In this document: piece by piece, positions 19,184 through 56,973 of the stretch
Numbering within the stretch: the first letter of the stretch is position 1
Layout of the letters: each line of letters opens with the position of its first letter
The notes under the pieces: model-generated
Told to the model about the DNA's origin: nothing
Database searches by the model: none
Seen by the model: only the letters and a program-made list of their open reading frames with translations
Position numbers and translations under genes: made by a program
Origin: Bacteroidota bacterium
GTDB taxonomy: Bacteria > Bacteroidota > Ignavibacteria > OLB7
DNA: 64,000 nt
Direction: 5' to 3'
Assembly (NCBI GenBank): GCA_048498995.1
Contig: JBEHWX010000013.1
Coordinates: 19,437 to 83,436 of the forward strand

Positions 19184-19968
19184 CGCGACAGCGGAATCAC
19201 GCCGCGCTGGCTGGAGCGGATGAAGTCGAGGATCTCATGGACCTCCGGCGTTCCATCGAGCGAGGCGGCCACGCGCTCCACCCCGTCGCCGATGTTGAGC
19301 CCGGAGCGATAGATGATCCGATATGCCTCGTCGATCGCGGCCACCGCCTGGTCGGAGAAGCCGCGACGGCGGAGGCCGATCACGTTGATGCCGCTGAAGC
19401 CGAGCGGCTGGTTGCCGGCGCGGACGAACGGCGGCACATCCTTCATCACGCGGAAGCCGGCGGCCACCATGGCATGCTTGCCGACCCGCTCGAACTGATG
19501 GACGCCGGTGAGCCCGCCGAGGAAGGCCCAGTCGTCAATGTGAACGTGCCCGCCGAGCTGCACGGCGTTGGCCAGGATCACGTGGTCGCCGACGATGCAG
19601 TCGTGCGCCACGTGCGTGTAGGCCATCAGCAGACAGTCCTTGCCGACGGTGGTCTGGTTGCGGGCGGTGGTACCACGATTGACCGTGGCATACTCGCGGA
19701 CCACGGTCCTGTCACCGATGACGGCCGTGGTCTTCTCCCCCTTGAACTTCAGATCCTGCGGAATGGCGCCGATGGAGGCGCCGGTGAAGATCTGGCAGTC
19801 GTTGCCGATCCGGGCACCGGAACAGAGATGCGCGTGCGACTGAACGTGGACGCCGTCCCCAATCACGACATCCTGCTCGATTACCGCGAACGGATCGATC
19901 CGGACTCCGGAGCCGATGACCGCATCGGGATGGACCGAGGCGAGCGGACTTATGTTTGTTTCCACCAT
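19180..19968 (-). CDS. lpxA: acyl-ACP:UDP-GlcNAc O-acyltransferase
   Basis: 262 aa left-handed beta-helix hexapeptide repeats, LpxA length. 4-nt overlap with lpxB. Confidence 0.92.
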   Translation of the reverse strand: MVETNISPLASVHPDAVIGSGVRIDPFAVIEQDVVIGDGVHVQSHAHLCSGARIGNDCQIFTGASIGAIPQDLKFKGEKTTAVIGDRTVVREYATVNRGTTARNQTTVGKDCLLMAYTHVAHDCIVGDHVILANAVQLGGHVHIDDWAFLGGLTGVHQFERVGKHAMVAAGFRVMKDVPPFVRAGNQPLGFSGINVIGLRRRGFSDQAVAAIDEAYRIIYRSGLNIGDGVERVAASLDGTPEVHEILDFIRSSQRGVIPLSR

Positions 19969-31995: not shown

Positions 31996-34062
31996 TCAGG
32001 CGTTGTCCGAGCTCTCGGCGGTGCCCTCCGAGCCCTCGCCGCCGCTGGCCGGCTCGGCGGCCGGCTGCTGCGCGATCTCCGGGTTCGGCTCACGGGTTCC
32101 CTGATCCTCCATCGGAGGCGTGCCCGAGGCTCCGGCGGCCGAGATCGTCTCCTCGGCCGCACCCGCCTTCGGCGCGCTCGGCGCGGCCGCGCTCTGCGTC
32201 GAGGAAGGCTGCTGCTTCGGCTCCGGCTGAGGCTTCTCCTCCTGCTGCATGTTCGGGAAGAGCTTCTCCTTGATCGACTGGCCGATCATGTCGCCGATCG
32301 AGAAGCTTCCCCTCGTCTCGGAGGACTTCATCTCGTTGACCGGCTGCGCGCTCGGCATCGGGCCGCGACGATCGTCGCGATCACGATCACGGCCGCCGCC
32401 TCCGCGGCGCTCGCCACGACCGCCGCCACCACCTTCGCCTCCCTCGCCACGCTCCGGCATCGGCAGGCCGAAGATCAGCGACAGACGCGTCGGATCGACC
32501 TCGATCACCCCGACGTTGATCTTGTCACCGGCCTTCATGTCCGGAAGGCGCTTGGCCTCGCGTCCCATGCGGCCGCGCGGCAGGAAGCCCTCGACATCCT
32601 CGAGGCCGACGACCAGCCCCTTGTTGGAGATCTCCTTGATCTCGCCTTCCCAGCTGGTGCCGACGGCATACTTCTGGGCGAGCGTCTCCCACGGGTTCTC
32701 CTGCGCCTGACGGAAGCTGAGGCTGAGGCGCTTCTTCCGTCCGGAGACGTCGAGCACCTTCACCGGGATCTCCTGTCCCTTCTTCAGCACTTCCTTCGGG
32801 TTGTGGATCCGCTTGGTCCAGGAGAGCTCCGAGGCGCGGATAAAGCCCTCGATGCCCGGCTCGAGCTCCACGAAGGCGCCCATCTTCCCAAGGCCGACCA
32901 CCTTCCCCTGCTGCACGCTGGCGGCCGGGTACTTGTTCTCGGCATCCTCCCACGGCGAGGGGAGAAGCTCCTTGCGGCCGAGATAGATCCGCTCCTTCTC
33001 CTTGTCGATCTCCCGCACGATCACCTCGACCTCCTCTCCCTTGGTCAGGAGCTGGCTCGGATGACGTCCGCGGGTGTAGCTGATCTCGGTGGTATGGAGC
33101 AGGCCGTCGATCCCCCCGAGGTCGACGAAGACGCCGAAATCGAGGATCGAGGAGACCCGTCCACGAATACGCTGTCCGACCTCGAGCGAGTCGAGGAGCG
33201 AGCGGCGGAGAATCGGCCGGCGCGTCGCCGTCACGCGGCGGGCGTCGGTGTCGAAATCGGTCATCTCGAGGACATTCGCGAGAACCTTCTCGTTGTTCCC
33301 CTTCGACTCACCCTGGGCGCTCTCCTCCGGCTGACGAAGGAGGGTCCAGTGCGACATCGGGATGAAGACCTCGATTCCCTTGTAGTGGCAGACGACGCCG
33401 CCACGATTGCGGGAGATGACCTCGAGCTCGATCGGCTCGTTGTTCTCCTTCTTTGCGGCCAGCTCCGACCAGAGCTCGCGCATTTCCGGCTCGCTCAGCT
33501 GCGGGAGCTTGCTGCCGCGACTGCCGCGGCGGCCACGTCCCTCACCGGCCTCGCCGCCAGCCTCCTCTGTCTGCGCATCGGACGCAACTGCCTCCCCCTC
33601 GGTGGCATCGCCGCCGGCGGCATCGCCACCAGTGGAAGCCTCGCTTGGAGAAGCCTCGCTGGTGGACGCATCGCCCGCGGGTGCGCCTCCGGTGGCATCA
33701 CCGGCCGGAGCGGGAGAAGCCGCGGGCGCGGACTCGGCCGTCGGAGGATGCTCCGCGGTGCTTCCGGCGTTACCGGAGGCTCCGGACTCGGCGGATGCGC
33801 CTGCCTCGGAGGCCGCCTCGGGGGCCGCCTCGGCCGTGCTCCCCGTCGGGGCTGCTTCCGCAGCGGATTCCGCTCCGGTGGAGGACTGTTCGGCCTGAGG
33901 TTCGGAGGTTCCATGTGCGAGCGACCCGGTCTCCGAAGTCGACGCGCCGGACTGCGACGTCTGATCTCCGGTTTCCTGTGTTCCGATGTTCTCCGATCCC
34001 TCGGGCATGGGGTTGGAGCCGGTCGGCTCCTGCTGCTCGAAGGTGTTTCCAGATTCCGTCAT
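31996..34062 (-). CDS. rpsA: 30S ribosomal protein S1 with long low-complexity N- and C-terminal extensions
   Basis: 688 aa. Four recognisable S1/OB repeats (GVVCHYKGIEVFIPMSHW; RIRGRVSSILDFGVFVDLGGIDGLLHTTEIS; GKVVGLGKMGAFVELEPGIEGFIRASELS; GEIKEISNKGLVVGLEDVEGFLPRG). About 180-aa Ala/Ser/Gly/Glu-rich N-terminus and Gly/Arg/Asp-rich C-terminus. Confidence 0.88.
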   Translation of the reverse strand: MTESGNTFEQQEPTGSNPMPEGSENIGTQETGDQTSQSGASTSETGSLAHGTSEPQAEQSSTGAESAAEAAPTGSTAEAAPEAASEAGASAESGASGNAGSTAEHPPTAESAPAASPAPAGDATGGAPAGDASTSEASPSEASTGGDAAGGDATEGEAVASDAQTEEAGGEAGEGRGRRGSRGSKLPQLSEPEMRELWSELAAKKENNEPIELEVISRNRGGVVCHYKGIEVFIPMSHWTLLRQPEESAQGESKGNNEKVLANVLEMTDFDTDARRVTATRRPILRRSLLDSLEVGQRIRGRVSSILDFGVFVDLGGIDGLLHTTEISYTRGRHPSQLLTKGEEVEVIVREIDKEKERIYLGRKELLPSPWEDAENKYPAASVQQGKVVGLGKMGAFVELEPGIEGFIRASELSWTKRIHNPKEVLKKGQEIPVKVLDVSGRKKRLSLSFRQAQENPWETLAQKYAVGTSWEGEIKEISNKGLVVGLEDVEGFLPRGRMGREAKRLPDMKAGDKINVGVIEVDPTRLSLIFGLPMPERGEGGEGGGGGRGERRGGGGRDRDRDDRRGPMPSAQPVNEMKSSETRGSFSIGDMIGQSIKEKLFPNMQQEEKPQPEPKQQPSSTQSAAAPSAPKAGAAEETISAAGASGTPPMEDQGTREPNPEIAQQPAAEPASGGEGSEGTAESSDNA

Positions 34063-34266
34063 GTCAATACGGGCTTCCGTGCGAGTGAAGAAGGTACGCA
34101 GTACGCGCAGTACGCTGTGATGGAGCCACCTTTCTGCTTAATGACACCATACGAGTGCGCAAACAAAGGGCGGGCAATATACGACGAGGAGTAGAATGCA
34201 CAAGCTCGGTCAGGAATGCGGATTTCGGTCGAGGCTGGTATGATTTTTTATCTTTGCCGCAGCCAT

Positions 34267-34869
34267 ATGCTTGTCCGACTGAGTTACGTTTTCATCCTCT
34301 GCGCGCTGGCGATCGCCGCGCTGCTCTACGTTCACTTCACCCGCTCCGGCGGTGAGGTCAACGCTTCCTACGTCGGCGTGAATCGATGCGGGACGTGCCA
34401 CGCCTCGGCCAGCTCCGGGGCGCAGTTCAAGATCTGGGCGTCGGGCCCGCATTCCAAAGCCTATGCCTCGCTCGGCTCGGATTCGGCCATGGCCTATATC
34501 CGCGCCAACGGGGCGGCGATGGAAGCATGCCTCAAATGCCACTCCACTCTCGGCCGCAAGGCCCTCAATCCCCACGAGGAGCGCGTCGACGCCGAGGGAA
34601 TCGGCTGCGAGCGCTGCCATGGGCCCGGAGGAAGCTACGCGACCTACAATGTAATGAAGGAGCGCGAGGCGTTTCTCGATAACGGCGGGATCGTTGGGAC
34701 GTTACGTGATTGTTACAACTGCCATGCTGCGAATCCGGCGAATGATCCGCATCATTGCCCCTTCCAACATGCAACGTTCAACGCAGATTCCGCCTGGACG
34801 CTGATCCGGCACGATGTTCGGACGACCGCCGGACAGCCGGACACCGTTCTCAAGCTCCGCGAACCATGA
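34267..34869 (+). CDS. membrane-anchored tetraheme c-type cytochrome
   Basis: N-terminal TM anchor (MLVRLSYVFILCALAIAALLYV). Four CxxCH motifs (CGTCH, CLKCH, CERCH, CYNCH). Start at ATG 34267. Stop overlaps murI start (ATGA). Confidence 0.75.
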   Translation: MLVRLSYVFILCALAIAALLYVHFTRSGGEVNASYVGVNRCGTCHASASSGAQFKIWASGPHSKAYASLGSDSAMAYIRANGAAMEACLKCHSTLGRKALNPHEERVDAEGIGCERCHGPGGSYATYNVMKEREAFLDNGGIVGTLRDCYNCHAANPANDPHHCPFQHATFNADSAWTLIRHDVRTTAGQPDTVLKLREP

Positions 34870-48056: not shown

Positions 48057-48099
48057 TCCCACGCGCGGAAACAGCCAAGTTACGTTACGAGGTCCGGCG

Positions 48100-48172
48100 G
48101 GAGAAGCCGTTCGCGCCGAATGGTGGAAACACAGTGTGACGCGCCGGAAGCTCCGCCGAGGCGGCATCCGGC
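48100..48172. repeat. 73-bp conserved repeat, copy 1 (module-boundary element)
   Basis: gggagaagccgttcgcgccgaatggtggaaacacagtgtgacgcgc...gctccgccgaggcggcatccgg, near-identical to 51229-51301. In copy 2 it lies in frame with a transposase-like ORF. Confidence 0.8.
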
Positions 48173-48236
48173 AAGCGCACGGGCCACGTCTCGATTGCGG
48201 CGAGGCCGGTCACCATACCGGAGCTGACAAAGCAGA

Positions 48237-48283
48237 CCGGGATCGGAGAGCTCCTCTCCGATCCCGGTATCGTTTTCATTCGG
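48237..48283. terminator. strong hairpin plus T-tract (likely bidirectional terminator) at 3' end of module 2
   Basis: ccgggatcggagag-ctc-ctctccgatcccgg perfect 14-bp stem (48237-48267), then TATCGTTTTCATTCGG. Lies 15-60 nt beyond the stop of gene 48298..49629. Confidence 0.55.
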
Positions 48284-48297
48284 TCGGATGTGCACTT

Positions 48298-49629
48298 CTA
48301 CCGGACGACCACCTTCACCAGGCCGATCACGCTTCCATCGAGTGAGACTCTAACGATGTAGGTTCCCGCGGACAGATCCCCAAGCTCCGTGAGCGGAACT
48401 GACGTTTCTCCAGGCTCGACCATGATCTCCGGCCCGCGCCACACTTCCCTTCCAAGCAGATCGCTCAACGTTACGTCGAGGCGCCCGCCATGCCCGAGAT
48501 CCACGCGAAGGGAAGCAGCGCCGTCCGGCGAGAGCGGATTGGGCACCAAGCGGAAATTCGCGACGTGCTTCCGAGGCATTGCCACCGATGAAACCGATCC
48601 CGATTGATGGATGTAGATTCTGCCGTCGGAGCCCGTAGCCAGCACACGCGTCGGGCTCAGGTAATGAAGCCCAGATAGGGCAATGATCCTCGCGAAATCG
48701 GCACTCGAGTCGCGGACCCACACGCGCCCTCCGTCACTAGTCCGGAACACAGCGGATGAGTAGTCACCGATGATCCCATTTAGTGTATCGAGAAACGCCA
48801 TCGACAAGATCTGCCAGAACTGGCGATCCAGATCGCTGTCGATCCTCACCTCCCAGGTCCTGGCCCCGTCTTCCGTATAGGCAAGTTGCAGCCTTGAAAG
48901 CTCTCCAGTTGACTCAACAAGAAATCGAGACGCCATCCATCCGTGCAGCGAATCGAGGAAGTACAGTTTTTGGGCTTTGTCGCGCGAGGGCATTCTCCGC
49001 CATGTGTGTCCGGTATCGTCGGTCCGAAAGAGCCGTGTCGAATCTCCGTACGTGACGCAGAGCGCATAAAAATTTGCCGGCGTGGGAGTCGAGATCTCGA
49101 CAACCCCGATTGGAAAGTCCACCGGCGGCAGCTCCGATTCGCGCCATGTCCGTCCACTATCAGTCGTTACCATAATGGTGTGATAGCCAAAGGTCGTAAC
49201 ACCGGTCCGTGCGTCGGCCATTGTCACGAGCTTGATCTTGTCCGTGGTGAAGGTGTCCCGGCTCCACGTATTCCCGCCGTCACGTGTAATCACCACTTGC
49301 CCGCTATCACCACCAACCATGCATACGCTGGGCGTCGGATACGAGATATATCGAAGCGGGATCGGCAACGCGTGCGGCCATGTGGCTGCTCCGGAATCCA
49401 GAAAGACGATCCGCCATGTACGTCCGCCGTCCGTGGATTTACGCACGTCGAACTCCGAAAATCCCCGTGTACCAAGGGCCATGCAGTTCACGGAATCGGC
49501 ACAGTCAAGGCATCGAAACTGATACAACGGAATCGAGTCAATGACCTCCCATCGCCCCGTCTGGGCATAGATTCGTCCGCAGAACAGAAGGAACCCAGCA
49601 ACAATCAGAAGGCGAGCAATACGCTCCAT
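48298..49629 (-). CDS. secreted BNR/Asp-box beta-propeller protein with T9SS C-terminal sorting domain (subtype I, paralog A)
   Basis: Signal peptide MERIARLLIVAGFLLFCGRIYAQ. Repeated S/T-x-D-x-G-x-T-W motifs (STDGGRTW, TRDGGNTW, TDSGRTW, TDDTGHTW, TEDGARTW, TSDGGRVW). C-terminal about 85 aa LVPNPLSPDGAASLRVDL...SAGTYIVRVSLDGSVIGLVKVVVR matches the Por_Secre_tail pattern. Confidence 0.8.
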   Translation of the reverse strand: MERIARLLIVAGFLLFCGRIYAQTGRWEVIDSIPLYQFRCLDCADSVNCMALGTRGFSEFDVRKSTDGGRTWRIVFLDSGAATWPHALPIPLRYISYPTPSVCMVGGDSGQVVITRDGGNTWSRDTFTTDKIKLVTMADARTGVTTFGYHTIMVTTDSGRTWRESELPPVDFPIGVVEISTPTPANFYALCVTYGDSTRLFRTDDTGHTWRRMPSRDKAQKLYFLDSLHGWMASRFLVESTGELSRLQLAYTEDGARTWEVRIDSDLDRQFWQILSMAFLDTLNGIIGDYSSAVFRTSDGGRVWVRDSSADFARIIALSGLHYLSPTRVLATGSDGRIYIHQSGSVSSVAMPRKHVANFRLVPNPLSPDGAASLRVDLGHGGRLDVTLSDLLGREVWRGPEIMVEPGETSVPLTELGDLSAGTYIVRVSLDGSVIGLVKVVVR

Positions 49630-49722: not shown

Positions 49723-50682
49723 TTAACGAGACACAAATGTGCCCGTTGTGAAATTGCATCCACCGAACGAAACTCTGTAGAAGTAGACGCCAGGGACCAA
49801 CCGTCCGCGGTCAATGACAAACCTATACACTCCATCGCCATCCAACACGGGCCGAAGTTCATCAACCTTTCTACCCGACACATCATTCAACTCCAGCAGG
49901 CCCTTGGCCGCAACCTCGGGTTTGCAGAGTATCGTCATTTCCAGGCCCAGATTGAAGATCTGCACATCATTGATGCGGTCCGCCTTGATAGCTCCCGTCA
50001 CGGGCTTACCTGATGTATCACTAAAGACAATGTTATCACACATCGCGAAACAGGATGATGTCGTAAAATCTCCAATGATAGGATTGATGGGAAATCCCGG
50101 GTTCCCGGATTCGGCATCCACCTCACAAGAAGTTGCGGTTGAGCGTTGATATTCGGTAACGATGCTAACATTACCATTCAGATCCTTGCAAACGCGATAG
50201 CGTGCAACGCAACACCCCGAGCCCTGGCAGGGGCGGATCGTCGGGATGGATCCGACATTCGTCTGCTTCCAGCAACCAGCAACACTGACACGGTAGTAAT
50301 TGATACATGAACCTGCGACAGGATTGGAGAACGGAAGAATCCCGGCAGTGAGGAGATATTGTGCCACCTCACGGAGCCAATCCCCCGGGAAGCACCCCGC
50401 GCATGTCCCAGACACATACTCGATCTTATATATCTGAATGTCGACATAGTTATCCGGCGGGCAGGCATTTCGAAAGACGTACCAGGCTCTAACCTGGCAA
50501 CTGCTCCCGCATGTAGTCAATGTGAAGGCCCAATTGCTGACTCCGACGGTGTTCCAGGAATGCTCTGGACAATCAGGGTAACAGAGCAGGTCTTCTTCCG
50601 AAGGCTGTGCATGGGCCGAGGTGGCAGTGGCAAAGAAGGTCGCGAAGAGCGCCATCATTGCCAGAAGTGTGACTCTCGACAT
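49723..50682 (-). CDS. secreted cysteine-rich protein of unrecognised family with T9SS-type C-terminal domain (paralog B)
   Basis: Signal peptide MSRVTLLAMMALFATFFATATSAHAQ. About 18 Cys in the mature region (LLCYPDCP, TTCGSSCQ, GTCAGC, GCCVARYRVCK, SSCFAMC). C-terminal VYRFVIDRGRLVPGVYFYRVSFGG... resembles the T9SS CTD. Paralogous to 55708..56664. Confidence 0.7.
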   Translation of the reverse strand: MSRVTLLAMMALFATFFATATSAHAQPSEEDLLCYPDCPEHSWNTVGVSNWAFTLTTCGSSCQVRAWYVFRNACPPDNYVDIQIYKIEYVSGTCAGCFPGDWLREVAQYLLTAGILPFSNPVAGSCINYYRVSVAGCWKQTNVGSIPTIRPCQGSGCCVARYRVCKDLNGNVSIVTEYQRSTATSCEVDAESGNPGFPINPIIGDFTTSSCFAMCDNIVFSDTSGKPVTGAIKADRINDVQIFNLGLEMTILCKPEVAAKGLLELNDVSGRKVDELRPVLDGDGVYRFVIDRGRLVPGVYFYRVSFGGCNFTTGTFVSR

Positions 50683-50925
50683 GATTCGTACCTCGTCGAT
50701 AGTAAGTAGTGGATCGACCGCGAACCCTCACTCCTCCCCCATGCGCAATTCCCGTTCTCTCCCGGACTCCGGCCGCTGGTGCGTGATGGCCGACCGTGTC
50801 GAAGTGCGTCGAATGCTGGAAGCCCTGCTTCCGGAATATGCCGGTGAATCGGTGTGTCTTACCTGACGTCGCCAATGGGCGGAACGTGGGTACAAAGGTA
50901 CAGCTCGATACCATTGCTGTCAAGT
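50683..50925 (-). promoter_or_regulatory. conserved about 200-nt leader plus candidate promoter upstream of Cys-rich gene B (copy 1)
   Basis: Near-identical to 56665-56905. On minus strand: TTGACA (rc 50918-50923), N17, TACCTTTG (rc 50893-50900). The conserved leader has hairpins GGAAGC-AGG-GCTTCC and CCGG-CATATT-CCGG. Confidence 0.5.
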
Positions 50926-51228
50926 GGGCCTCAAACGAAAAGAGCCGGGCGCATTGCCTCACAAATAATGTAACCAGAGGTCGTTGGCGGCCAGGGTCGT
51001 TGCCTCATAATAGATGTAACCGATCTAGCACTGAGGCAACGCTATGTCAGAAGCATCCAGACGTGAGTACCTACGGGCCATCTACAGGCGCTATCACACG
51101 GCATCCGTCGAGCAGAAAGGACGCATCCTCGATGAGTTCACCGCTGCCTGCGGCTACAACCGCAAGTACGCCATCCGGCTGCTCAATGCGCCACTGGATC
51201 CTCCTGCCAGGCCACCGAAGCGTCCGGT

Positions 51229-51301
51229 GGGAGAAGCCGTTCGCGCCGAATGGTGGAAACACAGTGTGACGCGCGCGACGCTCCGCCGAGGCGGCATCCG
51301 G
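51229..51301. repeat. 73-bp conserved repeat, copy 2 (module-boundary element)
   Basis: Near-identical to 48100-48172 (differences only around gcgc-c/g-g-a/c-a/g-gctcc). Confidence 0.8.
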
Positions 51302-51379
51302 TGGGATCACCGGCCTGGCGGCCGCGATAGTGACGCCCGATCGCCATCGATCAATATGCCGGTACGAACAAAGCAGGCC

Positions 51380-51420
51380 GGGATCGGAGAGCGGCTCTCC
51401 GATCCCAGTTTCGTTTTCAT
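51380..51420. terminator. strong hairpin plus T-tract (likely bidirectional terminator) at 3' end of module 1
   Basis: gggatcggagagc-g-gctctccgatccc (51380-51406) then AGTTTCGTTTTCAT. Lies 20-60 nt beyond the stop of gene 51439..52773. Homologous to the 48237 hairpin. Confidence 0.55.
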
Positions 51421-51438
51421 TCGGTCGGATGTGCCCTT

Positions 51439-52773
51439 CTAGCGCGCAAGCACCTTCACCAAGCCGATCACGCTTCCATCGAGTGAGACTCTGACAATGT
51501 AGGTTCCCGCGGACAGTCTCCCACGCGGCGCCAGCGGGATCGTCCTCTCGCCAGGCCCAATCACCTCTCCCTGCTCGGTCGCCACCTCCCTTCCGAGCAT
51601 GTCCGTGACCACCACTGTGAGGCGTCCGCCACGCTCCGTCGAGAGCCTGATCATCGCCATGCCGTCGCGGTCTACGGGATTGGGTGACAAACTTAGGCCG
51701 GTACGGCTCGTACCGATCTCCGCAACACCGGACTCCGGTTCGGACTCCGAGACGTAGATCTTGCCGTCGGCCGTCGCGGAGATCAGGCGTGTCGGCGTCA
51801 GATACTCGACACCCACGAAAATTTCAAGATTAGAGGCGAACACGTTCCAATCCCGATACCAGGTGCGCCCCCCGTCGCTGGTCAACCATACAGAGAGCGA
51901 ATAATCACCAATAATACCGTTGAGTGAATCACGGAATGCCATCGACATAATCCTCCAGAACTTGCCATTCAAGTCACTGTCGATCAATGTCTCCCAGGTC
52001 TTCCCTCCGTCACGCGTGTAGGCAAGGTTTAGCCGAGAAAGCTCTCCGTTTGGATCGATAATGAATCGGGACGCCATCCATCCCCGAAGCGAATCGAGAA
52101 AATAAATATTGAAGGCTTGGTCGCGCGATGGCAGTCGTTGCCAGGTTCTGCCCGTGTCGTCGGTTCGAAACAAAAGTGTTGAATCTCCACGAGTTGCACA
52201 TAGGCCCAGGAATGTCCCTGAAGCCGGTGTGGACACATCAGCCACTCCATGGGGATCGGATAAGTCAGGCCACAGGGATTGCCTCCATGTCGCACCTCCA
52301 TCGGTCGTCACCAATACCGAATCTGCGCCGATCACGATCATCCCGACGTTCGCATCCGACATTGACACAGCATTCACTTTGAGATTGCCGAACGTGTCGC
52401 GACTCCATGTACTACCTCCGTCATGTGTAACGAGCAACTGTCCTTTGTCGCCTCCGACCATGCATACATCGGCAGTCGGATGTGAGATATGACGCAGCGG
52501 TGCGGGCAGCGGGTGAGGCCATCCGCTCCCACCAGAGTCAATGTAGACGGTACGCCAAGTCCGGCCGCCATCAGTGGATCTGCGCACGTCAAACTCACCG
52601 AACCCGAATGTTCCAACCGCCATGCAATGCAGAGAATCAGCGCAATCGAGACACATGTACGTGAAACGGTAGACTGAGTCCTGCAACCGCCAATCCGAAA
52701 TTTGAGCAACGCTTCGGTTCCCAATGGTGGCAAGAGCCAGAATCGCGATGGCAAGAATCACGCGCTTCTTCAT
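51439..52773 (-). CDS. secreted BNR/Asp-box beta-propeller protein with T9SS CTD (subtype II, paralog C)
   Basis: Start at MKKRVILAIAILALATIGNRSVAQ (ATG 52773). BNR motifs (STDGGRTW, THDGGSTW, TDGGATW, TDDTGRTW, TRDGGKTW, TSDGGRTW). CTD ...SAGTYIVRVSLDGSVIGLVKVLAR. Confidence 0.8.
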   Translation of the reverse strand: MKKRVILAIAILALATIGNRSVAQISDWRLQDSVYRFTYMCLDCADSLHCMAVGTFGFGEFDVRRSTDGGRTWRTVYIDSGGSGWPHPLPAPLRHISHPTADVCMVGGDKGQLLVTHDGGSTWSRDTFGNLKVNAVSMSDANVGMIVIGADSVLVTTDGGATWRQSLWPDLSDPHGVADVSTPASGTFLGLCATRGDSTLLFRTDDTGRTWQRLPSRDQAFNIYFLDSLRGWMASRFIIDPNGELSRLNLAYTRDGGKTWETLIDSDLNGKFWRIMSMAFRDSLNGIIGDYSLSVWLTSDGGRTWYRDWNVFASNLEIFVGVEYLTPTRLISATADGKIYVSESEPESGVAEIGTSRTGLSLSPNPVDRDGMAMIRLSTERGGRLTVVVTDMLGREVATEQGEVIGPGERTIPLAPRGRLSAGTYIVRVSLDGSVIGLVKVLAR

Positions 52774-52811: not shown

Positions 52812-54143
52812 TTATGGGACAATCGCCTTCACCATGCCGATCACTCTTCCGTCCACCGAGATCCGAATGACGTAGGATCCGGGGGGCATGTCCCGAAACC
52901 CCGTAAGTGGAACTAGGGTTTCTCCAGGCCCGGCAATGACCTCCGCCCCGCGCCACACATCCCTTCCAAGAAGATCGACCATTGTAAGGTCGAGACGACC
53001 GCCGTGTTCGAGCTTCATCCGCAGCGAGGGGGTGCCATCCGACGAGACCGGATTGGGCGCTAGGCTGACATCGGCAACGTCATTGCGAACCATGATCACT
53101 GATGAAACCGGACCCGATTCATCGATAAAAACCTTTCCGTCGGAAGACACAGCCAGCAGACGCGTCGGGTTGAGATACTGAAGTCCCGAAGGAGCAAAGA
53201 TCTGAGCACTCAGAGCGCTTGAATCACGAAGCCACGTATACCCTCCATCACTCGTCCCGAAGACAGCGGAAGAGTTATCTCCAATCACGCCATGCAAGGT
53301 ATCGAGAAACGCGATCGACATGATCCGCCAGAACTGACGATTCAGATCACTGTCGATCCTCACTTCCCACGTTCTGGCGCCATCATTCGTGTAGGCAAGT
53401 TGCAGTCTCGAAAGCTCTCCATTCGGATCGATACTATTTCTGGAGGCCATCCAACCGTGCAGCGAATCGAGGAAATAAATATCCCGGGCCTTATCTCGCG
53501 ATGGCATTTTTCGCCACGTATGCCCGGCGTCGTCAGATCGAAAGAGCGGCGTCGAATCGCCATACGTGGCGCAGAGTGCGTAGAAGGTCGACGGCGTCGG
53601 AGTCACCATCTCGCTAACACCAATTGGAAAGTCCACCGGGGGCAGCTCTGATTCTCGCCAGGAACGACCGGTATCGGTCGTGACCAATATCGTATGATAT
53701 CCAAAGGACGTAACGCCGGTCCGCGCGTCCGCCATTGCCACAAGCTTAATCTTATCTGTCGTGAGCGTATCACGGCTCCAGGTGCCTCCTCCGTCTCGTG
53801 TTATCAGCACCTGGCCGCTATCTCCACCAACAATGCACACATTCGGATCAGGATACGAAACGTGGCGGAGAAGGATAGGCAGCGAATGGGGCCACGTGGC
53901 TGCTCCTGAATCCAGAAACACAGTTCGCCAGGTGCGTCCTCCATCGGCGGACTTCCGGATAAGCGATGCCGCGAACCCCTTTGTTCCGACGACCATGCAG
54001 TTCATGGAATCCGCGCAGTCAAGCGACAGATATTGGACATTCGGTATCGAGTCGACGACCTCCCATCGCCCCGTCTGGGCGTGAAGCTGCACACCGAGTA
54101 CGATCCCGAGCACGATCAGAAAGTGACGGGCCATGCAATGCAT
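52812..54143 (-). CDS. secreted BNR/Asp-box beta-propeller protein with T9SS CTD (subtype I, paralog D)
   Basis: Signal MHCMARHFLIVLGIVLGVQLHAQ (start 54143 or 54134). Roughly 80% identical by eye to paralog A over the N-terminal half. CTD ...SYVIRISVDGRVIGMVKAIVP. Confidence 0.8.
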   Translation of the reverse strand: MHCMARHFLIVLGIVLGVQLHAQTGRWEVVDSIPNVQYLSLDCADSMNCMVVGTKGFAASLIRKSADGGRTWRTVFLDSGAATWPHSLPILLRHVSYPDPNVCIVGGDSGQVLITRDGGGTWSRDTLTTDKIKLVAMADARTGVTSFGYHTILVTTDTGRSWRESELPPVDFPIGVSEMVTPTPSTFYALCATYGDSTPLFRSDDAGHTWRKMPSRDKARDIYFLDSLHGWMASRNSIDPNGELSRLQLAYTNDGARTWEVRIDSDLNRQFWRIMSIAFLDTLHGVIGDNSSAVFGTSDGGYTWLRDSSALSAQIFAPSGLQYLNPTRLLAVSSDGKVFIDESGPVSSVIMVRNDVADVSLAPNPVSSDGTPSLRMKLEHGGRLDLTMVDLLGRDVWRGAEVIAGPGETLVPLTGFRDMPPGSYVIRISVDGRVIGMVKAIVP

Positions 54144-54268: not shown

Positions 54269-55606
54269 TTATCGAACGAAGGCCTTCACCACGCCGATCA
54301 TATCTCCATCAAGCGCGATTCTGACGATGTAGGTTCCCGCGGACAGTCTCCCACGCGGCGCCAGCGGGAGCGTCCTCTCGCCAGGCCCAATCACCTCTTC
54401 CTGCTCGGTCGCCACCTCCCTTCCGAGCAGGTCCGTAACGACCACGTCAAGGCGCCCACCCCGCTCCGTCGAGAGCCTGATCATCGCCATGCCGTCGCGG
54501 TCGACGGGATTGGGTGACAAGCTTAGGCCGGTACGGCTCGTACCGATCTCCGTAACACCGGACTCCGGCTGAGATTCGAAGGCGTAGATCTTGCCGTCGG
54601 CCGTCGCGGAGATCAGGCGCGTCGGGGTCAGGTACTCGACACCCGAGAATGTCGTAAGCTTCAGAGCATACACACTCCAGTCCCGATACCAGGTACGTCC
54701 ACCGTCACTGGTCAACCATACGGCAAACGAGTAGTCACCGATGATGCCATTGAGCGTATCCTTGAACGCCATCGAATGGATCTTCCAGAACTTGCCGTTC
54801 AAATCGCTGTCGATCAACTGTTCCCACTGCTCCCCACCATCACGTGTATAGGCGAGATCCAGCCGCGAAAGCTCCCCATTCGGATCGACACGAATTCGAG
54901 ATGCCATCCACCCATGGAGCGAATCGATGAAGTAGATATTCTGCGCTCTATAGCGGGAAGGCATTTGCCGCCAGGTTCGTCCCGTATCATCCGTACGAAA
55001 CAGATAGCTAGAATCGCTCATTACAACACAAAGCACAAGAAAGGTTCCGGGAGCAGGTGCTGTGATATCGACAACTCCATACGCGCGAGGCATCGATGGC
55101 ATCTCCGATTCCCCCCAGGTTCTTCCCCCGTCAGTAGTCACAAATATCGAATCGGCACCAATCGCAAACATGCCCACATTTGCATTAGACATTACAACTG
55201 TTTTCACATTGAGATCGCCGAATATCTGACGGCTCCATGTTGCCCCCCCGTCTCGTGTTACAAGCACTTGCCCTTTGTCCCCGCCGACCGCACATATATC
55301 TGCAGAAGGATATGAGATATGTCGCAATGGAGCAGGTAGTGGGTGCGGCCAGCCAATGCCCCCAGAATCCAGATAAACCGTGCGCCAGGTTCGGCCTCCA
55401 TCGGTGGACTTGCGTATATCGAACTCGCCGAACCCGAACGTACTGATGGCCATGCAGTGCAGCGAATCCGCGCAGTCGAGGCTCATGTAAGACATCTGAT
55501 AAACGGAGTCCTGCAGTTCCCAGTCACTGATCTGTGCAAGCAGGCGGCTTCCCGCGAGAAACAGCATCAATGACAACACCGAAATCAAAGTTTTTCTAAA
55601 CATCAT
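54269..55606 (-). CDS. secreted BNR/Asp-box beta-propeller protein with T9SS CTD (subtype II, paralog E)
   Basis: Signal MMFRKTLISVLSLMLFLAGSRLLAQ. Roughly 75% identical by eye to paralog C. The 3' about 120 bp are virtually identical to C at DNA level. Confidence 0.8.
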   Translation of the reverse strand: MMFRKTLISVLSLMLFLAGSRLLAQISDWELQDSVYQMSYMSLDCADSLHCMAISTFGFGEFDIRKSTDGGRTWRTVYLDSGGIGWPHPLPAPLRHISYPSADICAVGGDKGQVLVTRDGGATWSRQIFGDLNVKTVVMSNANVGMFAIGADSIFVTTDGGRTWGESEMPSMPRAYGVVDITAPAPGTFLVLCVVMSDSSYLFRTDDTGRTWRQMPSRYRAQNIYFIDSLHGWMASRIRVDPNGELSRLDLAYTRDGGEQWEQLIDSDLNGKFWKIHSMAFKDTLNGIIGDYSFAVWLTSDGGRTWYRDWSVYALKLTTFSGVEYLTPTRLISATADGKIYAFESQPESGVTEIGTSRTGLSLSPNPVDRDGMAMIRLSTERGGRLDVVVTDLLGREVATEQEEVIGPGERTLPLAPRGRLSAGTYIVRIALDGDMIGVVKAFVR

Positions 55607-55707
55607 TCAACCTCAGAGTTTCCCCTGTGAGATATCAACAGACAAACATAAACGCCACAAGGTTATTAGGTATCCGTTGCTGCCGCAACGGATACCTAAT
55701 AATACAC

Positions 55708-56664
55708 TCACCGACCGAAGAACTCTCCGGTCGTGAAATTTTGACCGTTGAATGAGATTCGGTAATAGTAGATGCCACTCCCGAATCTGATCCGGTCGAC
55801 CAAGAACCTGCATGCATTATCGCCCACAATTACGGGGCGAAGTTCGGCGACTTTCTTACCCTGAGCATCGAAAATTTCTGCAACCCCTTCCAACAGGGAT
55901 TGGGGGCGACACAAGATCTGCATTTCAGCTCCCTGATGAAATACCTGAACATCATCAGTGATATTATATTGACCGCCCCAATACTTCTTGCCGAATGAAT
56001 CATTAATTGTGATCGCATCGCACTGCGGAGTGCAGGATGATGTCGTTTGGTCTCCAATCACGGGGTTATACGGAAAATTTAGATCGAGCGACTCCGGATC
56101 ATTATCGCATGGGGGCTGAGTTGGCGATTGATATTCAGTCGTAATCGTTATTCGATCGTCGGTACCCTTGCACACCTTATATCGTGCAACGCAACATCCC
56201 GCGGACTGGCAAGCTCGTATTGACGGTACAGAGCCGACTTTGACCTCTTTCCAACAGCTTGCGATACTAACCCTAAAGTAGGTAACACAGTTATCAGGGT
56301 CAGGGTTTGGAAACAGAGAGATGTTATCGACCAGCAAATGTTCGGCTGCTCCTTGGATCCAATCCGAAATCGAACAGCTCGTACATGTTCCAGACACGTA
56401 TTCGATCTTATAAATCTGAACATCCTGATAGTTACTGGGCGCACACGCCGTCCGATACACGTACCAGGCCCGAAGTTGACAGGAGCTACCACATGTGGTC
56501 AGTGTAAACATGTGATTGGATACGCCTACCGTACTCCATTGATCGGCTGGGCAGTCCGGGTAACAGAGCAAGTCTCCGTACGAAGGTTGGGCCATGGCGG
56601 TTACCGCGAGCCCGAGAAACGCGGCGATGAGTGAGAGCATGCCTCTCAAAATGATTCTCGACAT
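55708..56664 (-). CDS. secreted cysteine-rich protein of unrecognised family with T9SS-type CTD (paralog F)
   Basis: Signal MSRIILRGMLSLIAAFLGLAVTAMAQ. Conserved Cys framework shared with paralog B (LLCYPDCP...FTLTTCGSSCQ.RAWYV.R.AC.P.NY.D.QIYKIEYVSGTC..C...CCVARY.VCK). CTD ...GIYYYRISFNGQNFTTGEFFGR. Confidence 0.7.
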   Translation of the reverse strand: MSRIILRGMLSLIAAFLGLAVTAMAQPSYGDLLCYPDCPADQWSTVGVSNHMFTLTTCGSSCQLRAWYVYRTACAPSNYQDVQIYKIEYVSGTCTSCSISDWIQGAAEHLLVDNISLFPNPDPDNCVTYFRVSIASCWKEVKVGSVPSIRACQSAGCCVARYKVCKGTDDRITITTEYQSPTQPPCDNDPESLDLNFPYNPVIGDQTTSSCTPQCDAITINDSFGKKYWGGQYNITDDVQVFHQGAEMQILCRPQSLLEGVAEIFDAQGKKVAELRPVIVGDNACRFLVDRIRFGSGIYYYRISFNGQNFTTGEFFGR

Positions 56665-56905
56665 GATTCGTACCTCGTCGATAGTATGTAGTGGATCGAC
56701 CGCGAATCCTCACTCCCCTTCGTGGGCAAATCCTCCCTCCCGGACTCCGGCCGCTGATGCGTGATGGTCGGTCGTATCGATGTCCGTCGAGTGCTGGAAG
56801 CCCTGCTTCCGGAATATGCCGGTGAATCGGTGTGTCGTACCTGACGTCGCCATCTGGCTGAACGCGGGTACAAAGGTACAACTTGACACCATCGCGACCA
56901 AGCGG
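56665..56905 (-). promoter_or_regulatory. conserved about 200-nt leader plus candidate promoter upstream of Cys-rich gene F (copy 2)
   Basis: Near-identical to 50683-50925. On minus strand: TTGGTC (rc 56896-56901), N17, TACCTTTG (rc 56871-56878). Confidence 0.5.
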
Positions 56906-56973
56906 CGCCAAACGCAACGAGCCGGTGAGGCACTTCCCTCACCGGCTCGTACAATCGCTCTTCTGATTCTCCC

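Follow-up and report, generated by a model that had tools for sequence, protein, structure and literature searches.

Two tandem cassettes of T9SS cargo genes

The window, i.e. the whole stretch of 64,000 nucleotides analysed here (positions 19,437 to 83,436 of contig JBEHWX010000013.1 of a Bacteroidota bacterium), contains two gene cassettes arranged in tandem, with all of their genes on the minus strand. Cassette A consists of CysA (49723..50682), whose product is a secreted, cysteine-rich protein of 319 amino acids that has a signal peptide and ends in a T9SS-type sorting domain, and of BNR1 (48298..49629), the second and last gene of this cassette. Cassette B comprises CysB (55708..56664, 318 amino acids), a paralogue of CysA, and three BNR genes, BNR4 (54269-55606), BNR3 (52812-54143) and BNR2 (51439 to ~52773, with a start inferred from an internal methionine). 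The four BNR/Ycf48/sortilin-like genes located 3' of the Cys-rich genes are paralogous to each other and all carry T9SS tails.

The two Cys-rich proteins, earlier put at about 60% identity, are only 55% identical as measured here. Their synonymous sites are saturated (pS 0.785; dN 0.40). The CysA protein and its counterpart in a sister strain share 98.4% identity. No Pfam family matched the Cys-rich proteins, and at their C-terminus a sub-threshold match to TIGR04183, the T9SS type-A sorting domain, was found. An AlphaFold model (pLDDT 84.8) had neighbours in the PDB for the C-terminal beta-sandwich only (DUF3244, mirolase CTD). Word-indexed protein searches returned nothing but the two paralogues and protein P0004; an exhaustive profile search yielded 253 distant relatives (E<=0.001). 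In an alignment of 40 of these 253, 15 invariant cysteine columns and an N-terminal domain of ~190 amino acids became apparent, and this domain usually precedes a T9SS tail. Judging from the model, the N-terminal domain may represent a new fold or family. Scanning metagenome contigs with protein alignment revealed no relatives of the Cys-rich proteins.

The two-cassette locus (48.3-56.9 kb) has a G+C content of 47-60% compared with ~65% in the flanks, and its GC3 values are 0.53-0.66 as opposed to 0.8-0.9 in the neighbouring genes. This suggests that the low-G+C island is of foreign origin or subject to a different selective regime.

Downstream of CysB lies a perfect 18-bp hairpin (55663..55702, z -6.4), and it is directly followed by a TATGTTTG box (55650-55643) located 37 nt 5' of the BNR4 start codon. 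Because of the strong hairpin after CysB and the TATGTTTG box in front of BNR4, it appears that CysB is transcribed by itself, which suggests that cassette B holds separate transcription units. No comparable hairpin is present between CysA and BNR1 in cassette A. The preliminary description of this DNA had proposed that the leader upstream of the Cys-rich genes controls both modules. For module B this is doubtful given that hairpin and the separate box of BNR4, and in cassette B the Cys-rich gene is probably the only one that the leader serves.

An insertion sequence remnant is located on the plus strand (50951..51225) where the cassettes meet, between the 3' end of cassette B (R2, see below) and the upstream region of CysA. 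It contains three copies of the subterminal repeat TGAGGCAAYG, a 32-nt direct repeat and, from 51044, the truncated N-terminus of a transposase, about 44-60 codons that read on into unrelated repeat DNA. The first 44 amino acids share 50-55% identity with genes annotated as 'transposase family protein'. Homology to the 3' end of cassette A (R1) and to the sister strain contig L014 ends abruptly at 51222. Directly 5' of the CysB upstream region, a terminator-like hairpin of the MFS transporter gene with a perfect stem of 14 bp is present (56917..56950, minus strand; -36 kcal/mol, z -5.6); the matching stretch 5' of the CysA upstream region has z +0.7. A remnant of the 3' arm of this terminator appears to be retained there (p=0.007), which is only suggestive as it partly coincides with the subterminal repeat of the insertion sequence.

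A repeat upstream of both Cys-rich genes

The regions preceding CysA and CysB had been described as aligning almost base-for-base, and this was borne out by a nearly gap-free alignment of the minus strand: positions 50670-50935 (copy A) and 56652-56915 (copy B) share 86% identity across 249 aligned nt (K=0.156). Each copy forms the 5' arm of its cassette and takes in the promoter, the predicted 5' UTR and the initial 13 nt of CysA or CysB, respectively. In windows of 50 nt, identity amounts to 82-94% within the repeat (50701-50900) and to 48-70% in the coding regions, and upstream of ~50950 it equals the background. The repeat is somewhat longer than first noted and begins 5' of the -35 box; its upstream edge is solid to 50935/56913 and has faded by 50962/56942, with weak homology of copy A to copy B continuing to ~50962. 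On the downstream side it ends 13 nt past the start of the coding sequence (ATGTCGAGA[G/A]TCA) and covers codons 1 to 4. As direct repeats, the copies lie 5978-5982 bp from each other. Sub-blocks measuring 33 and 43 nt are each present exactly two times in the window and in 0 of 100 shuffles.

The differences between the copies are clustered. The longest identical run spans 45 nt (p=0.016), the three longest runs total 96 nt (p=0.004), and in copy A the invariant blocks are located at ~50845-50801, 50776-50746 and 50711-50670. Such clustering fits functional footprints and is also predicted by mosaic recombination.

Several other identities of the repeat were considered and rejected. The end of a mobile element or a MITE, for which many dispersed copies with terminal inverted repeats would be expected, does not fit, as there are only two copies in the window and none were found in genome and metagenome scans. 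An invertible, phase-variable promoter would be flanked by inverted repeats, and no inverted-repeat pair common to both copies flanks the promoter. Cys-containing open reading frames on the opposite strand (plus strand, from 50796 and 56780) bear no coding signature, and the two diverge outside the repeat. More generally, the repeat has no coding signature in any frame of either strand (pN/pS 0.6-1.2, stops in most frames).

Predicted promoter and leader

The promoter boxes with the motif TAnnTTTG that had been proposed were found in both copies. Copy A has a -35 box TTGACA (50923-50918), a spacer of 17 nt and a -7 box TACCTTTG (50900-50893). In copy B, the corresponding elements are TTGGTC (56901-56896), again 17 nt and TACCTTTG (56878-56871). 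TAnnTTTG is the -7 box of the Bacteroidota sigma-A factor; in Flavobacterium psychrophilum it extends from -12 to -5 (PMC9723704). The arrangement expected for promoters of this type, TTG at -33 and TAnnTTTG at -7 with 17-20 nt between them, was found in copy A, copy B and L014. The -7 box and the spacing are thus kept in both copies and in the sister strain. Within the window the motif is enriched (10 sites observed, 2.6 expected).

Placing TAnnTTTG at -12 to -5 as in Flavobacterium (PMC9723704) puts the predicted transcription start sites at ~50888 for copy A and ~56866 for copy B, with 5' UTRs of 206 nt (50888-50683) and 202 nt (56866-56665), respectively. Leaders of 202-206 nt are long: in Flavobacterium and Bacteroides, the median length of 5' UTRs is 24-32 nt (PMC9723704). 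The claim of a long non-coding leader following the promoter is supported in that a plausible Bacteroidota-type promoter is situated ~205 nt 5' of the start codon and the intervening region is devoid of a coding signature. Most likely, the repeat represents the promoter of each Cys-rich gene together with its 5' UTR, with the transcription start placed by analogy.

Elsewhere in the window, an apparently non-coding gap of ~690 nt (34062-34755) contains a TATCTTTG box at 34249-34256 on the plus strand, ~500 nt before the next plus strand gene. The sole open reading frame in this gap has an atypical GC3 (0.58).

Search for an RNA element in the leader

The unusual length of the leader and the invariant blocks left by the clustered differences both speak for a functional cis-regulatory RNA, be it riboswitch-like, a binding site for a protein or small RNA, or a translational switch hiding the start codon, that would have been held by purifying selection while the proteins diversified. 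The preliminary description had likewise pointed to a cis-regulatory RNA leader, namely a riboswitch, an attenuator or an sRNA target. A riboswitch, an attenuator or a structured leader gained no support: signals in Rfam, folding stability, covariation, terminators and coding potential were all lacking. A scan of the window with Rfam at the gathering threshold identified tRNA only, and both copies remained without meaningful match even at E<=10. Folding energies relative to dinucleotide shuffles amounted to z +0.32 for copy A, +0.61 for copy B and +0.68 for the opposite strand, compared with z -4 to -6 for real hairpins of the same locus.

The two hairpins that had been pointed out, GGAAGC-AGG-GCTTCC and CCGG-CATATT-CCGG, are indeed present in the leader. 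They leave no room for covariation because the 45-nt block in which they reside is invariant between the copies. With RNAalifold on copy A, copy B and L014, three close sequences that afford little power, none of 62 consensus pairs was compensatory and the covariation term was +0.12. The consensus fold contains a 15-bp pairing between an invariant block and the start-codon region, a feature that would suit a translational switch. Long-range pairing of this kind was nevertheless rejected as a specific feature, since 17-42% of shuffled leaders pair with the start at least as strongly. At -8 to -10 kcal/mol, the hairpin formed locally around the start codon is ordinary for genes in the window (mean -11, sd 6). 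Terminator-like sites were found in neither leader region. In line with this, an attenuator is not apparent: the leader has neither an internal terminator nor the coding signature of a leader peptide.

A sister strain with a single cassette

Protein P0152, which falls into the 90%-identity cluster of CysA, led to six contigs from six samples that stem from a sister strain; five of the six are referred to here as L014-L018. In these contigs the order is ATP synthase gamma, MFS transporter, terminator, leader, a CysA-like gene, a BNR1-like gene and the flank with YqeY and MutS2. Outside the cassette ends they are 98-99% identical with the window (0-2 mismatches per 100 nt), with a divergence of under 1% in the flanking DNA, and the dS values of the flanking genes are 0.014-0.045. 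The sister strain holds a single cassette in which BNR1 is present and BNR2, BNR3 and BNR4 are absent. Because of this, copies A and B can be recognized as direct repeats that bracket a strain-specific segment of 5.98 kb, which comprises the insertion sequence remnant, BNR2, BNR3, BNR4 and CysB.

Between the strains, K of the leader is 0.088-0.108 (8-14 mismatches per 100 nt) and thereby exceeds the dS of the flanking genes. The leader is hence a hot spot of divergence between near-identical strains, the opposite of what purifying selection would lead one to expect, and its faster change relative to neighbouring synonymous sites argues against a constrained regulatory RNA. The original alternative, that the leader is conserved more strongly than the genes or was recently homogenised, can accordingly be divided. 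The hot spot of divergence in the leader speaks against stronger constraint, whereas homogenisation gains support from the bracketed 5.98-kb segment and from the mosaic structure of the sister leader described in the following.

Mosaic structure of both cassette ends

Copy A, copy B and the sister strain's leader were compared in a three-way alignment. Copy A alone differs at 16 sites, of which 13 cluster in the 5' third (alignment columns 112-202); copy B alone differs at 18, and 14 of these are found in the 3' part (columns 248-336). It follows that the sister leader is B-like in its 5' portion and A-like in its 3' portion, the signature of a crossover within the repeat. As there are also seven sister-specific sites (columns 157-244), its history must have been more complex than a single crossover between the present copies A and B.

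The 3' ends of the cassettes exhibit the same kind of similarity. Each 3' arm combines the final ~70 nt of a BNR gene with a terminator hairpin and a spacer of about 200 nt. In the 3' arm of cassette A (R1, 48092..48370, minus strand) the gene is BNR1, the hairpin lies at 48236-48267 and the spacer is conserved; in that of cassette B (R2, 51222..51510, minus strand) the gene is BNR2 and the hairpin lies at 51378-51406. Over ~280 bp R1 and R2 are ~84% identical, compared with 55-70% nucleotide identity in the interiors of the genes, and K of the arms (~0.15) contrasts with saturated pS values of 0.67-0.79 in the interiors. Because both ends of the cassettes share this property, a non-coding region that is more similar than the genes is not special to the leader. 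Within the spacer, the 94 nt 3' of the BNR terminators (48092-48185 in R1, 51222-51315 in R2, 5790-5884 in L014) are 89-95% identical, and one plus strand frame stays open; this stretch could be a spacer, an old insertion sequence fragment or a small RNA.

The centre of the 3' arm of the sister strain matches R2 at 29-30 of 30 positions and not R1, although it is located 3' of BNR1. Together with the B/A composition of the sister 5' arm, this makes both arms reciprocally mosaic. The same holds for the end of the BNR1 protein (compared between 48165-48330 of the window and 5631-5810 of L014): the C-terminal residues are VKVVVR in the window and VKVLAR in the sister strain, the latter being the end of BNR2. 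The patch runs through the terminator and is, as judged from these sequences, the product of a recent exchange involving both 3' arms. In addition, the last ~370 nt of BNR2 and BNR4 (51453-51820 and 54283-54650) are 83-97% identical compared with ~70% upstream, and they include a perfect run of 34 nt. It represents a clear gene-conversion tract over the T9SS C-terminal domain.

The next homologues outside the locus

Protein P0003, encoded on the identical contigs L008-L012, is 49% identical with CysA (pS 0.83) and thus about as distant from it as CysB is (55%, pS 0.79). A promoter homologous to those of copies A and B lies 227 nt before its start codon; the match between -35 and +25 is 33/57 without gaps and was reached by 0 of 500 shuffles. 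For the rest of the leader upstream of P0003, nhmmer gave no match at E<=10 and the best blastn hit had E=0.11. Homology beyond the promoter was therefore rejected; islands such as CATCACGCAC are colinear and not significant. As the P0003 leader is not detectably similar, the 86% identity of copies A and B reflects recent shared DNA ancestry and not deep constraint.

The leader profile found nothing upstream of P0004 either. This protein is 31% identical, and a TTTG-N20-TATATTCG site is present ~150 nt 5' of its start codon. For the regulatory RNA, these comparisons cut both ways: the architecture with a long leader recurs at the P0003 locus, which would suit such an element, yet the leader sequence is kept upstream of neither P0003 nor P0004. 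Among the closest relatives the long leader as such may go back a long way, with a sequence that is free to change. Since promoter and long-leader architecture are kept at the P0003 locus, the leader probably has some function.

P0006, a more distant member of the family, has an upstream spacer of only 118 nt. On its contig (L019, 1623-3915) it is located 118 nt 3' of a small gene with a weak match to sigma-70 region 2. This small gene possibly encodes an ECF sigma factor, which hints that some members of the Cys-rich family could be under dedicated sigma-factor control.

Searches for further copies of the leader itself gave chance matches at best. A pattern scan of genome contigs with CACCGG-N6-CCGGAAGC-N3-GCTTCC produced seven matches, all confined to the pattern. 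A stretch that agrees with the invariant block in 28 of 30 nt (L002, 1790-1835) was rejected as a chance resemblance; it is an intergenic hairpin or terminator between convergent genes of the Firmicutes member Baileyella intestinalis. A scan of metagenome contigs with the leader islands CATCACGCAY..CARCGGMCGGASTCC had 0 matches.

Recombination between cassette ends as the best explanation

The reading that we favour, with a probability of roughly two in three, is that promoter and 5' UTR act as homology arms that are kept alike by recombination, i.e. by concerted evolution; we infer that the copies resemble each other chiefly because of recombination and not because of selection. Each copy would constitute the front of a cassette for T9SS cargo, consisting of a sigma-A promoter, a leader of ~205 nt and the first four codons, and two such cassettes would have come to lie in tandem, joined by a truncated insertion sequence. 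The cassette interiors would be ancient, highly diverged alleles, and the non-coding ends would share a much younger ancestry (K ~0.15) through homologous recombination, by crossover as well as by gene conversion. The arms would thus have provided the homology by which the 5.98-kb segment was gained here or lost in the sister strain, and they would in addition be sites of repeated exchange of patches. Both an insertion and a deletion are compatible with the 5.98-kb event.

Some observations count against recombination as the main cause. The boundary of the similarity falls exactly 13 nt inside the coding sequence, the differences are gathered such that three long blocks remain invariant, and the seven sister-specific sites do not fit a single simple crossover. 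The retention of the promoter and of a long leader at the P0003 locus belongs here as well. Moreover, public data contain three distinct leaders, with which selection and recombination are not statistically separable.

Among the competing explanations, a cis-regulatory RNA under purifying selection is unlikely in view of the folding, homologue and strain comparisons given above. A related possibility combines both forces: the leader would be a 5' UTR, so far undescribed, that regulates T9SS cargo genes in an uncultured lineage of the FCB group; selection would hold its three invariant blocks, through a trans-acting factor or a translation switch, and recombination would spread the module. This, too, we consider improbable. 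Equally doubtful is a regulatory region acting at the DNA level, in which operators for a transcription factor at or downstream of the promoter would co-regulate both Cys-rich genes. Short palindromes in the invariant blocks, CCGGA-G-TCCGG and, near the start codon, GTCGAT-N12-ATCGAC, are in its favour, as is the conservation of the -7 box and spacing in copies A and B and in the sister strain. These candidate palindromes are, however, short and were read directly from the sequence, and no regulator gene adjoins the locus. The strain comparison and the calibration with P0003 argue against strong constraint, and operators would leave the equally similar 3' arm unexplained.

The order of the two cassettes rests on one contig, which is probably metagenome-assembled: the cassette proteins are recorded only from one NCBI contig of 85.8 kb and from short Logan metagenome contigs, the one-cassette form comes from six independent samples and the two-cassette form has a single record. 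That the tandem is an assembly artefact, in which two strain alleles of one locus were stitched together via their shared arms, is nonetheless very improbable, because the joint contains ~270 bp of unique sequence with the insertion sequence remnant fused to the end of R2, which an assembler would not invent, and because the longest identical run of 45 nt is below typical final k-mers.

Comparison with known systems and significance

The closest analogue is the upstream homology box (UHB) of the erp/ospE/ospF genes of Borrelia burgdorferi (Marconi et al. 1996, J Bacteriol 178:5615, via PMC10016077), taken together with concerted evolution of tandem paralogues. The genes of the UHB family encode variable surface or secreted proteins and, like the cassettes described here, combine a conserved promoter and upstream region with divergent coding regions; recombination has been documented among members of the family. 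The UHB genes are present in many copies on multiple cp32 prophage plasmids, with known regulators binding to the region. In the present case, by contrast, there are two chromosomal copies in tandem in an uncultured bacterium bearing a T9SS, and no regulator is known. Tandem paralogues that evolve in concert in prokaryotes (PMC6053082) are likewise too similar for their age and show patchy mosaic tracts with sharp boundaries. Here, however, the homogenised tracts are the non-coding ends of the cassettes while the interiors stay saturated.

Variable loci of the replacement type, such as the pneumococcal cps locus between dexB and aliA and the O-antigen clusters, are situated between conserved arms. 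They resemble the present locus in that deeply divergent alleles for surface structures lie between conserved flanks and are swapped by homologous recombination in these flanks. They differ in that both alleles are found here in tandem in one genome, and in that the arms are short (~280 bp) non-coding promoter and terminator regions and not flanking housekeeping genes. With the riboswitches and structured leaders of Rfam, the leader has in common a long 5' UTR with short hairpins in front of a gene; what it does not share with them is a model match, excess stability, covariation, an expression platform, a terminator or conservation in the next homologue.

If the leader were a regulatory RNA after all, it would give initial access to how T9SS cargo is controlled post-transcriptionally in a lineage about which little is known. 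Recombination between the arms, the reading preferred here, opens no new mechanism. It carries the warning that a non-coding region more conserved than the adjacent coding sequence is not evidence of a riboswitch. The locus is a clean example of cassettes of variable secreted proteins that retain shared promoter and terminator ends, by way of which they are gained, lost and shuffled, and it is of use in reading strain-level variation and metagenome-assembled genomes (MAGs).
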